From positions 1-64,000 of the IMG/VR virus record IMGVR_UViG_3300020433_000671: a stretch of 64,000 nt of DNA; one strand, given 5' to 3'. Below are positions 5,722-6,466 of the stretch, in pieces. Every line of letters starts with the position of its first letter. The first letter of the stretch is position 1. This DNA is from a virus. The position numbers and the translations under genes are program-made. Under the pieces are notes generated by a model. It saw only the letters and a program-made list of their open reading frames with translations, was not told where the DNA came from and did no database searches.

Positions 5722-5862
5722 TTAACTTTTTGAAGCAAACTTTCGTTTTACCTTGATTCCACGATACATGAGATCATGGTTTCTTTTCTGTGCTTCGATC
5801 TGTACCATCTTGCGGTACTCGTCAGTGTCATAGGTGACACCACGATAAGTGACTTGTGCCAT
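5722..5862 (-). CDS. DUF4278-type small protein
   Basis: MAQVTYRGVTYD...LMYRGIKV; repeated YRG motif; downstream of a glutamine riboswitch; GGAG SD. Confidence 0.85.
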   Translation of the reverse strand: MAQVTYRGVTYDTDEYRKMVQIEAQKRNHDLMYRGIKVKRKFASKS

Positions 5863-5895
5863 TGTGTTACTCCAAAGTAGTAGGGATTGTAGCCC

Positions 5896-6092
5896 CGTTC
5901 CTTCAGTCAACTTTTGCGTCCCAGTTACATTCTAATCCAAGGTCTCCGACAAGATCTATTTGATAAAGATCAATAATTTCTTGTCTTTCATGTTCAGTTA
6001 GATCAGGATAACTTTTTGCTCTAGCAACAAGACCCTCAATATCTGCACATGTAATAGACGTGGCGATTAAAATTTCTAACATGAGATGAACG
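5896..6092 (-). ncRNA. Glutamine riboswitch (glnA-type) aptamer 2, split by an ORF in the P2 loop
   Basis: 5' half CGUUCAUCUCA at 6092-6082; 3' half UGGGACGCAAAAGUUGACUGAAGGAACG at 5923-5896. Confidence 0.75.
5903..6082 (-). CDS. 59-aa protein nested inside riboswitch aptamer 2
   Basis: Manual translation MLEILIATSITCADIEGLVARAKSYPDLTEHERQEIIDLYQIDLVGDLGLECNWDAKVD. Confidence 0.75.
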   Translation of the reverse strand: MLEILIATSITCADIEGLVARAKSYPDLTEHERQEIIDLYQIDLVGDLGLECNWDAKVD

Positions 6093-6096
6093 TATC

Positions 6097-6137
6097 CGTT
6101 CCGAGTCGGCTTACTTGCGTCCCTTTTGGGATGAACG
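6097..6137 (-). ncRNA. Glutamine riboswitch (glnA-type) aptamer 1
   Basis: CGUUCA-UCCC-AAAA-GGGA-CGCAAGUAAGCCGACUCGGAACG; P1 CGUUC/GAACG. Confidence 0.85.
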
Positions 6138-6144
6138 TATTGTC

Positions 6145-6173
6145 ATGATAACATGACATAATTATTTAGTCAA
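6145..6173 (-). promoter_or_regulatory. sigma70 promoter overlapping a late-type TAAATA box
   Basis: TTGACT-N17-TATCAT; predicted +1 lies just before aptamer 1; CTAAATA overlaps the -35/spacer junction. Confidence 0.65.
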
Positions 6174-6466
6174 GCAATAGAATAAAAGGTGTATTTAAGG
6201 AATAGTTCCTCTCCTTTTTTAATTCGTTTAATAGTTTTCATATAATAGATCTGACTCTTATCTCCTTGTACACACCATTTCACACAGTTAGGATCTTCAC
6301 TATGATTTACAAATCCACCTAAAGGAGTCCTTATAATATCACCATCCACCACAACATGAGAGACACCAAGATACATCATAGCATCGATATCCTCCTTAGC
6401 AAATAATCCCTGTCCTGCAACAGGACTATTTTTAATATGTAATTCTGGTGGAAGTGCTGTATACAT
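6170..6466 (-). CDS. Minimal SET-domain protein (putative lysine methyltransferase)
   Basis: SPVAGQGLFA, FVNHSEDPNC and IKKGEELFLKY motifs. Confidence 0.88.
   Translation of the reverse strand: MYTALPPELHIKNSPVAGQGLFAKEDIDAMMYLGVSHVVVDGDIIRTPLGGFVNHSEDPNCVKWCVQGDKSQIYYMKTIKRIKKGEELFLKYTFYSIA

Follow-up and report, generated by a model that had tools for sequence, protein, structure and literature searches.

A probable nested double glutamine riboswitch with a gene in one of its stem-loops, heading a small early operon in a T4-like cyanophage

Glutamine riboswitches and the cyanophage leader

Glutamine-I riboswitches (RF01739), described for the gifB/IF17 leader of Synechocystis (PMC6212724) and at the level of structure (Ren et al. 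2015), are built from a P1 helix CGUUC/GAACG, a P2 hairpin, a junction J2/3 of the form CG-N-AAGUA, a P3 helix and a junction J3/1 GAAG. A linchpin pair, G23-C60, joins J2/3, at its third base, to the first nucleotide beyond P1 (PMC11477058, PMC6212724). The class is associated with genes for DUF4278/IF17-like proteins (PMC6212724), and according to the model for Synechocystis gifB, nucleotides at the 3' margin of the aptamer keep the ribosome site covered unless glutamine binding draws them into the core (Klaehn et al. 2018, PMC6212724). Here we describe a related leader in a 64,000-nucleotide (nt) stretch of viral DNA (IMG/VR record IMGVR_UViG_3300020433_000671, positions 1 to 64,000; hereafter the window), which is DNA of a T4-like cyanomyovirus with Prochlorococcus and Synechococcus myoviruses as its closest named relatives. 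An earlier note, made from the letters of this DNA, had predicted tandem glutamine aptamers at this locus, the second with a whole protein-coding gene inside it. We conclude that the leader is probably a nested double glutamine riboswitch at the head of a small early operon, working by the mechanism proposed below.

The phage leader shares with the glutamine-I class P1, P2, the CG-N-AAGUA and GAAG junctions, P3, the position of the linchpin and a downstream DUF4278/IF17-like gene. In addition, part of the aptamer's 3' edge can base-pair to the ribosome site, suggesting a translational ON switch. In contrast to the known class, P3 is not a hairpin but a long-range helix around a second, permuted core, one P2 loop holds a translated gene (both do in many relatives), the element is phage-encoded, its linchpin is C-G rather than G-C, and it scores below the Rfam gathering threshold. 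The small hairpin 3' of P1, which supplies G5895 as the predicted partner in the linchpin, is reminiscent of the "short helix attached to P1" of glutamine riboswitches, which is melted by the ligand.

Tandem arrangements of glnA RNAs have been noted before (Weinberg et al. 2010, PMC2864571), and 157 glutamine doublets have been counted as side-by-side, pseudo-cooperative systems (Sherlock et al. 2022, PMC9481103). These doublets likewise have two glutamine-type cores per leader and probably include compact relatives of the phage element. However, they are described as independent units, whereas the phage cores are nested, share P3 and carry a gene within a stem-loop; neither a shared P3 nor a gene within a stem-loop is mentioned in PMC2864571 or PMC9481103. 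The glutamine-II class (Downstream-peptide, RF01704), which precedes small open reading frames (ORFs) with a YRG motif in marine picocyanobacteria, resembles the phage leader in its CGCA junction, the GGAACGG sequence, its small DUF4278/YRG targets and a strand between junction and GGAACG that pairs outside the local hairpin. This strand pairs downstream as a pseudoknot in glutamine-II, but with the matching strand of the second core in the phage.

Two further kinds of RNA combine structure and coding sequence. In trp-type attenuators and in mgtL of the Salmonella mgtA Mg2+ leader, the position of the ribosome on an embedded ORF sets the RNA fold, and the phage leader is alike in that ribosome position would choose between alternative structures. 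The leader peptides, however, are short sensors of tRNA or proline supply located between expression-platform helices, whereas the phage ORF encodes a conserved protein of 50-66 amino acids (aa) in the loop of an aptamer helix. Homing-endonuclease ORFs sit in group I intron loops, which similarly places a gene in a peripheral loop and leaves the RNA core intact. Those genes are mobile passengers of ribozymes, whereas the phage gene has its start and stop codons incorporated in the helix and core of an mRNA ligand sensor.

Glutamine riboswitches have been listed in cyanophage genomes without structural comment (PMC9964418), and riboswitches have been reported to be rare in phages (PMC9004378). 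The literature that we searched contained no shared P3, no permuted inner core and no gene within an aptamer helix, and reviews present tandems as side-by-side units. This agrees with the earlier note, which knew of no ORF nested in an aptamer.

The nested gene and the helix that closes it

The nested ORF belongs to the cyanophage cluster T4-GC 430, matches phrog_504 and is annotated as a hypothetical protein in P-SSM7, P-SSM4 and S-SSM7. The gene starts within a riboswitch helix, with its AUG in the 5' strand, and its final six codons together with the UGA stop double as riboswitch core: W-D-A-K-V-D-stop is encoded across the 3' strand of the inner P2 helix (P2'), the inner J2/3, the shared P3 and the outer J3/1. 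At the 3' end of the riboswitch, the minus strand reads ...UAACUGGGACGCAAAAGUUGACUGAAGGAACG, with 5896 as the last base.

Relatives were gathered by DNA patterns, as a locus search with the single protein yielded 2 loci. A pattern that is blind to reading frames (CGTTCA, 148-178 nt, GGACGCAA, 6-20 nt, GGAACG) matched at least 120 viral contigs in IMG/VR. Of 124 unique segments among the matches listed, 122 have an ATG 10-11 nt downstream of the start of CGTTCA, and their frame is open for 52-63 codons. For 121 of the 122, the last base of the stop (TGA or TAA) precedes the end of GGAACG by exactly 7 nt, and all length differences between the ORFs were multiples of three. The ratio of nonsynonymous to synonymous substitution rates (dN/dS) for the interior codons was 0.19-0.21 against the two closest relatives; across all usable pairs the median was 0.42, and 97% of the pairs were below 1. 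Variation by codon position (entropies of 64.8/41.0/74.0 bits) followed the usual coding pattern. At identities down to 24%, the protein family retains two invariant cysteines and a nearly invariant E35, and AlphaFold predicts a two-helix hairpin with a mean pLDDT of 80. Searches of Pfam and the ESM Atlas pointed to no function, and there was no Pfam family match. Together, the patterns of conservation indicate that the nested ORF is a real, conserved protein-coding gene. This bears out the prediction of a gene in a P2-type loop that starts in the 5' strand and stops in the conserved core, with homologous inserts open in frame and dN/dS below 1.

The layout is not peculiar to this phage but common to well over a hundred viral contigs. 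A second scan used the inter-core junction as its anchor, irrespective of the sequence that follows, and was pooled with the first, giving at least 191 unique leaders. Because the first scan had been selected for the gene, the pooled sample is biased towards the gene-bearing form. Among the 191 leaders listed, about 36 have a compact second hairpin and about 138 have a loop of 120-200 nt that holds a homologue of the nested gene; no 3' half was assigned in the other 17.

The first P2 hairpin can hold a gene as well, which was the case in about one third of the gene-bearing leaders from the first scan (among the matches listed). This gene (T4-GC 429, phrog_6471) has 66-75 codons in these leaders and 61-75 across all loci, with examples in P-SSM4 (L002, 391-628), S-TIM4 (L006, 496-723) and about 50 IMG/VR loci. 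Here too, 10-11 nt separate the AUG from the start of CGUUCA, and the stop is found either in the 3' strand of the hairpin (CAUAGGA, CAUAAGA, CAUGAGA) or at CGCAAGUAA, such that start and stop can occupy the two strands of one helix (UCUCAUG ... CAUGAGA). Profiles of T4-GC 429 and T4-GC 430 align over the cysteine-to-cysteine segment with 96.9% probability in hhalign (E 1.5e-10), and by this comparison the two nested gene families are paralogues.

We also considered a cellular origin. A pattern scan of 185,579 species genomes gave 46 matches, including 7 true elements, all of them on contigs of metagenome-assembled or single-cell genomes. Two adjoin a phage-type nrdB and two are on contigs of ~190 kb, the size of a cyanomyovirus genome. 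A cellular origin was rejected as the seven elements look phage-borne; leader L327 aside, the species genomes scanned contained no clear cellular copy.

The pairing of UCUCA(U)GUUA with UAAC-UGGGA that had been proposed to close the gene is present in the window, where 6086-6082 pair with 5923-5919, followed by a one-base U bulge and GUUA/UAAC. Covariation in this helix, for which the earlier note had suggested a test, was seen in an alignment of 92 distinct homologous leaders, window included. The five closing pairs (UCUCA/UGGGA in the window) are standard-paired in 98% of cells, and four of the five show changes on both sides (UA to CG; CG to UG or UA; CG to UG, UA or AU; AU to UA). Slid controls for the gene-bearing leaders were paired in 29-54%, and the covariation score of the whole structure was 0.134 compared to 0.049 for shuffled alignments, with 0 of 500 shuffles reaching it. 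As the parse demanded at least 3 stem pairs and one scan fixed the 3' GGA, the first three pairs are partly conditioned by the search, while the inner pairs are free. The conserved helices and their covariation, like the sequence itself and the coding status of the ORF, are direct results of the analysis.

Unconstrained folding with ViennaRNA gave the long-range helix in the window at a probability of 0.80-0.99. In 44 homologues the median P2' probability was 0.90 for native sequences and 0.28 when the interior was shuffled with dinucleotides kept, and the native value was the higher one in 42 of the 44 (p = 1e-11). Given this drop upon shuffling, the coding sequence seems, as far as folding models can tell, to be shaped so that the helix can close.

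Two cores and a shared P3

The Rfam glutamine model RF01739 matched the window at 6139-6093 only, with 32.6 bits (gathering score 35, local E 4e-05). A window-wide Rfam scan at gathering thresholds reported nothing at the riboswitch locus, which means that standard annotation overlooks the element. In compact relatives, RF01739 scores highest when aligned to the outer core with 39-41 nt inserted in P3 (41.0 and 38.4 bits, more than the required 35), and the second unit of two such relatives (L153, L163) reached 35.0-35.3 bits. Covariance model R1, derived from the compact double cores, did not bridge the 165-nt loop and gave only a forced, uninformative alignment of 39.8 bits to 6137-6048. The pattern of the 3' half, GACGNAA-N6-24-GGAACG, occurs twice in the 64-kb window compared to 0.01 occurrences expected.

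Both copies of P1 CGUUC/GAACG are present with their flanking conserved A and G, and are invariant in 92 gene-bearing and 26 compact homologues. The outer P2 shows changes on both sides in 4 of 4 pairs of the homologue alignment. P3 has a modified form, flanked by CGCAAGUA and GAAG, and contains the second core in place of a loop. The third base of J2/3 is matched to the base 3' of P1, as C-G in the window, and the IF17-like DUF4278 gene downstream provides the association with nitrogen genes. The glutamine-II model RF01704 scored 23.2 bits (gathering score 33), and the junction strand pairs with the other core rather than with downstream sequence. By sequence and predicted structure, the cores fit the glutamine-I class except for the swapped linchpin and a covariance model that does not span the element. 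The claim of glutamine-riboswitch sequence at the locus is supported by the window's own, sub-threshold RF01739 match and by compact relatives above the gathering score.

The nucleotides that separate CGCAAGUA from the first GGAACG form a helix with those that separate CGCAAA from GAAGGAACG. The common short P3 is AGUCG/CGACU, with the compensatory variants AUUCG:CGAAU, GUCA:UGAC and AUCG:CGAU; the window has a long form, AGCCGACU/AGUUGACU, for which relatives exchange U-A for A-U and C-G for U-A. Both-side changes were found in 4 of 8 pairs in the 26 compact relatives and likewise in 4 of 8 in the 92 gene-bearing leaders. In the compact relatives, 95.7% of cells were paired compared to 84.9% after shuffling (0 of 500). 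With this helix, the outer core is a canonical glnA three-way junction (P1 6137-6133/5900-5896, P2 6131-6120, P3 6111-6104/5912-5905). The inner core is circularly permuted and runs GAACG, a loop of 3-6 nt in all leaders, CGUUC, the gene-bearing hairpin and CGCAAA; its P1 hairpin has a pair probability of 0.99 in the window and a mean of 0.77 in 44 homologues.

The canonical J2/3 occurs only in the first unit and the canonical J3/1 only in the second. Both linchpin pairs are C-G in 169 leaders. A targeted scan for C after the first GGAACG returned five real leaders, and the second junction had G in all five. In three of them (L162, L264, L306; C,C,G,G), the first junction keeps C and the last GGAACG is then followed by G, which leaves two Watson-Crick linchpins only under the nested assignment. 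Constrained folds of the window gave -66.5 kcal/mol for the nested and -60.9 for the tandem arrangement, and the P1 helices of side-by-side aptamers had a probability of ~0 in the window and a mean of 0.03 in 44 homologues. Based on the Rfam parse, the distribution of junctions, the linchpin covariation and the folding energies, we favour a canonical outer core that holds a circularly permuted inner core within its P3, with the gene in the inner P2. Of the tandem aptamers proposed earlier, the two glutamine-type cores remain; they are not independent neighbours, as the segments at the P3 positions pair with each other and covary.

Proposed switching, alternatives and the surrounding DNA

P1 is followed by a small GGG...CCC hairpin, the stem of which is kept in relatives despite different sequences and large insertions. 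3' of it come ACUACUUU(A)GGAG and, after 7-9 nt, the AUG of the YRG-motif DUF4278 protein, which in the window starts 33 nt 3' of P1. The hexamer CU(G/A)AAG, which takes in the last two P3 bases, the nested stop codon and J3/1, can pair with CUU(U/C)(A/G)G at the start of the DUF4278 Shine-Dalgarno (SD) sequence. This anti-SD helix is part of the unconstrained minimum-energy fold (-69.9 kcal/mol, 3.4 below the nested sensor fold). In 163 distinct leaders with a YRG-checked start codon, 83% had 6/6 pairing compared to 71% with shuffled partners (0 of 500). UCAG was found only with G at the third base of the hexamer (50 vs 0, p = 8e-10), and UUUAGG was never found with C at the second base (0/10 vs 75/153, p = 0.002), in statistics that ignore kinship. 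The pairing of the stop-codon segment beside the DUF4278 ribosome site suggests an ON switch, in line with the model for Synechocystis gifB.

In some relatives (L017, L036, L042, L194), the small hairpin contains an insertion of 25-35 nt (GGGAAAAAACGGAUCC...GGUUAAUUUUCACCC) that itself forms a hairpin, with the GGG/CCC closure kept. It could be an extra structured module.

The nested gene may respond to the ligand as well. In most relatives, the inner P1 hairpin loop and the G before it form the sequence GGAG, 10 nt 5' of the nested AUG. Since the first G of this GGAG is the inner linchpin base, ligand bound to the inner core may lower initiation of the nested gene. The nested AUG emerges ~165 nt before its pairing partner, so that ribosomes can load during transcription, and the gene would load them only while the long-range helix is open, most easily co-transcriptionally. 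Ribosomes on the last codons and the stop would make the 3' strands of P2', P3 and P1 unavailable, such that neither core forms, and each terminating ribosome would also take the anti-SD hexamer off the DUF4278 ribosome site. On ribosome-free RNA, the long-range helix would close and bury the AUG. Without glutamine, CUGAAG would then pair with CUUUGG at the DUF4278 ribosome site (OFF), whereas with glutamine the outer core would draw the hexamer into P3 and J3/1, free the ribosome site and allow translation of the IF17-like gene (ON). Expression of two phage proteins, the IF17-like one and the small nested one, would in this way depend on host glutamine and on translation of the same RNA.

With its AUG in a helix and its stop in the core, translation of the nested gene and nitrogen sensing should compete on one mRNA. 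The earlier note had held folding and translation to be mutually exclusive, which they must be sterically; the competition itself, the ligand, the ON/OFF direction and the effect of ribosomes are what we infer from the arrangement. The glutamine-dependent choice between two small proteins that had been suggested is plausible. As a tentative extension, which we regard as possible and do not press, ribosome traffic on the nested gene or genes and glutamine on the two nested cores would form one bistable device that partitions early expression by host nitrogen: open, translated RNA would keep making the nested protein, and closed RNA would mask the AUG and let glutamine switch on the IF17-like gene.

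The same half-units could be read as two independent aptamers placed side by side, each with its own P1, the gene in the second P2 and the pairing of the P3 segments either a pseudoknot or absent. Each half-unit does resemble the Rfam model (32.6 bits in the window, 35.0-35.3 for the second unit of L153 and L163), identical P1 strands make either partner possible by base pairing alone, and the 157 doublets of Sherlock et al. 2022 (PMC9481103) were tallied as side-by-side. Nevertheless, we hold this arrangement to be unlikely: linchpin covariation fits only nesting in three leaders and never favours the tandem, each canonical junction is confined to one unit, and the top Rfam parse spans both units. 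Moreover, the tandem-constrained fold is 5.6 kcal/mol worse with P1 probabilities of 0.00-0.03, and with the covarying P3 formed a tandem would become a strained double pseudoknot. Some observations nonetheless weigh against the nested riboswitch that we favour. As the P1 strands never vary, covariation cannot directly demonstrate the P1 partner, the choice of which rests on three discriminating leaders, junction lengths, the Rfam parse and energy models that disregard tertiary contacts, ligand and ribosomes. Conserved A-C mismatches occur in P3 of many relatives, and the covariation counts, taken from sequences that are related, depend in part on the search patterns and the stem filter of at least 3 base pairs. 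In Rfam, the window itself stays under the gathering score of 35, and its match covers 6139-6093 rather than the full element across the 165-nt loop. The anti-SD helix covers just the first two GGAG bases, and tolerance of G-U pairs limits its covariation signal. Finally, the linchpin is C-G where the crystallised glutamine-I RNA has G-C, so that glutamine can only be called the presumed ligand.

This last point, together with a J2/3 of CGCAA instead of CGGAA and the shortened junctions of the inner core (CGCAAA and a single C), would also agree with a correct fold that binds a ligand other than L-glutamine, or binds through a single core. Considering that the validated glutamine-II class has CGCA and GGAACGG in its Rfam consensus too, that P1 and the E-loop bases are invariant, and that the IF17-like family downstream is a known target of glutamine riboswitches, this appears distinctly improbable. 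Even less credible is a relic in which insertion of the gene broke the second aptamer and the half-sites persist only as codons for the protein ends. The 3' half is coding (W-D-A-K-V-D-stop) and could be conserved by protein constraint, but the non-coding 5' half, made up of CGUUCA and the first bases of the stem, is invariant as well. Further against a relic, stem changes compensate on both sides, the stop is fixed to the base in 121 of 124 segments, the coding interior favours helix closure, the design recurs with a paralogous gene in the other P2, and compact versions with the same cores attain the Rfam gathering score. We give equally little credence to an untranslated ORF, that is, 165 nt of long structured P2 extension that are open by chance. 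ViennaRNA indeed folds the interior into a long irregular hairpin and no Pfam family matches, but dN/dS of ~0.2 against close relatives, codon periodicity, length changes in multiples of three, invariant cysteines, a paralogue found by profile comparison, the confident AlphaFold hairpin (pLDDT 80) and the phrog_504 match all speak for translation.

On the tentative reading as a bistable device, the nested genes would be the first protein genes inside an aptamer and the inner core the first circularly permuted aptamer nested in another. This contrasts with the usual view of a riboswitch as a compact non-coding sensor ahead of genes: as sensor and coding sequence are physically interleaved, ligand sensing, folding and translation must be read together. 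The leaders (at least 190 unique ones) would provide a widespread natural system for ribosome-ligand competition on one RNA, and the meaning of "tandem glutamine riboswitch" would be revised for marine sequences. They would also explain why phage riboswitches are rare in Rfam-based surveys (PMC9004378), and suggest that cyanophages adjust an IF17-like factor, and with it possibly host glutamine synthetase, to the nitrogen state of the host.

The positions of the individual features are given in Table 1. Those proposed earlier for the promoter, the aptamer halves, the ORF, the DUF4278 gene and the terminator are all correct on the minus strand, and the ORF is indeed followed by a DUF4278 (IF17-like) gene with a Pfam match and then by a terminator.

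Table 1 Features of the riboswitch operon in the window
Feature	Position	Strand	Sequence and remarks
Early-type promoter	6173-6145	-	TTGACT 6173-6168, N17, TG-TATCAT; -10 at 6150-6145
Compact first aptamer half	6137-6097	-	CGUUCA-UCCC-AAAA-GGGA-CGCAAGUAAGCCGACUCGGAACG
Outer P1 5' strand and conserved A	6137-6132	-	CGUUC + A; partner GAACG 5900-5896 in the nested model
Outer P2 hairpin	6131-6120	-	UCCC-AAAA-GGGA; covariation
Outer J2/3	6119-6112	-	CGCAAGUA; fits Rfam consensus CGGAAGUA; C6117 predicted linchpin, partner G5895
Shared P3 5' strand	6111-6104	-	AGCCGACU; pairs with 5912-5905; covariation
Inner P1 closed hairpin	6101-6088	-	GAACG 6101-6097, loop GAUA 6096-6093, CGUUC 6092-6088
Predicted inner linchpin	G6096 with C5916	-	Linchpin covariation
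Second CGUUCA	6092-6087	-	Preceded by GAUA; continues CGUUCA-UCUCAUG
Inner P2 (P2') 5' strand	6086-6077	-	UCUCA-U-GUUA; includes nested AUG 6082-6080
Nested gene	6082-5903	-	59 codons + UGA; ORF, homologues
P2' 3' strand	5927-5919	-	UAAC-UGGGA; codons 52-55 of nested gene
3' half	5923-5896	-	UGGGACGCAAAAGUUGACUGAAGGAACG; sequence
Inner J2/3	5918-5913	-	CGCAAA; C5916 predicted inner linchpin base
Shared P3 3' strand	5912-5905	-	AGUUGACU; U5905 first base of UGA stop
Anti-SD hexamer	5906-5901	-	CUGAAG; J3/1 plus C5906 and U5905
Outer J3/1 and P1 3' strand	5904-5901, 5900-5896	-	GAAG, GAACG; fits Rfam consensus GAAGGAACG
Small hairpin	5895-5883	-	GGG-CUACAAU-CCC; directly 3' of P1; G5895 predicted outer linchpin
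CUUUGG	5877-5872	-	Overlaps SD sequence GGAG 5873-5870 of DUF4278 gene; can pair with CUGAAG
UAAC	5869-5866	-	Can pair with GUUG 5911-5908
DUF4278 gene	5862-5722	-	IF17-like, YRG-motif small protein; phrog_5049; Pfam 26.6 bits, cut-off 25.3
Intrinsic terminator	5696-5676	-	9-bp stem, 5 G-C pairs, T run

The promoter has 10 of 12 matches to the sigma-70-type consensus, with TG ahead of the -10 box, and TTGAC is located 36-38 nt 5' of CGUUCA in most of 111 relatives. The transcript is predicted to start 1-4 nt ahead of the riboswitch. The genes flanking the operon are nrdB, a SET-domain gene and talC. Directly upstream, at 6466-6170 on the minus strand, a 98-aa protein with a SET domain in its C-terminal half (PF00856, E 6e-11) is encoded, and the stop of its gene overlaps the -35 box; P-SSM7 has a T4-GC 716 gene at the corresponding position.

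About 20 nt 5' of the -35 box, and 54-61 nt 5' of the first CGTTCA, a GTA-N8-TAC motif is present in 62 of 111 related leaders (e.g., L132, L137, L145, L158) compared to 2.8 expected. We take this motif to be the consensus of the nitrogen regulator NtcA. If it is an NtcA site, 2-oxoglutarate-dependent control of transcription would stand ahead of the glutamine-dependent RNA switch. The motif is absent from 6174-6230 of the window, since the SET-domain gene extends as far as the promoter there.

A perfect inverted repeat, TGTCATG..CATGACA at 6141-6158, embraces the -10 box and ends 2-4 nt before the riboswitch. In 110 relatives (L132-L201) the best arm averages 6.4 nt compared to 4.0 nt after shuffling, and the arms vary between phages (GGTCTAT/ATAGACC, TGTGTTA/TAACACA, GGTATG/CATACC). 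The repeat may be a feature at the DNA level or an RNA hairpin in read-through transcripts. Elsewhere in the window, at 814-909 on the minus strand, there is a PhotoRC-II RNA (63.9 bits, gathering score 39), a known psbA-associated cyanophage motif.

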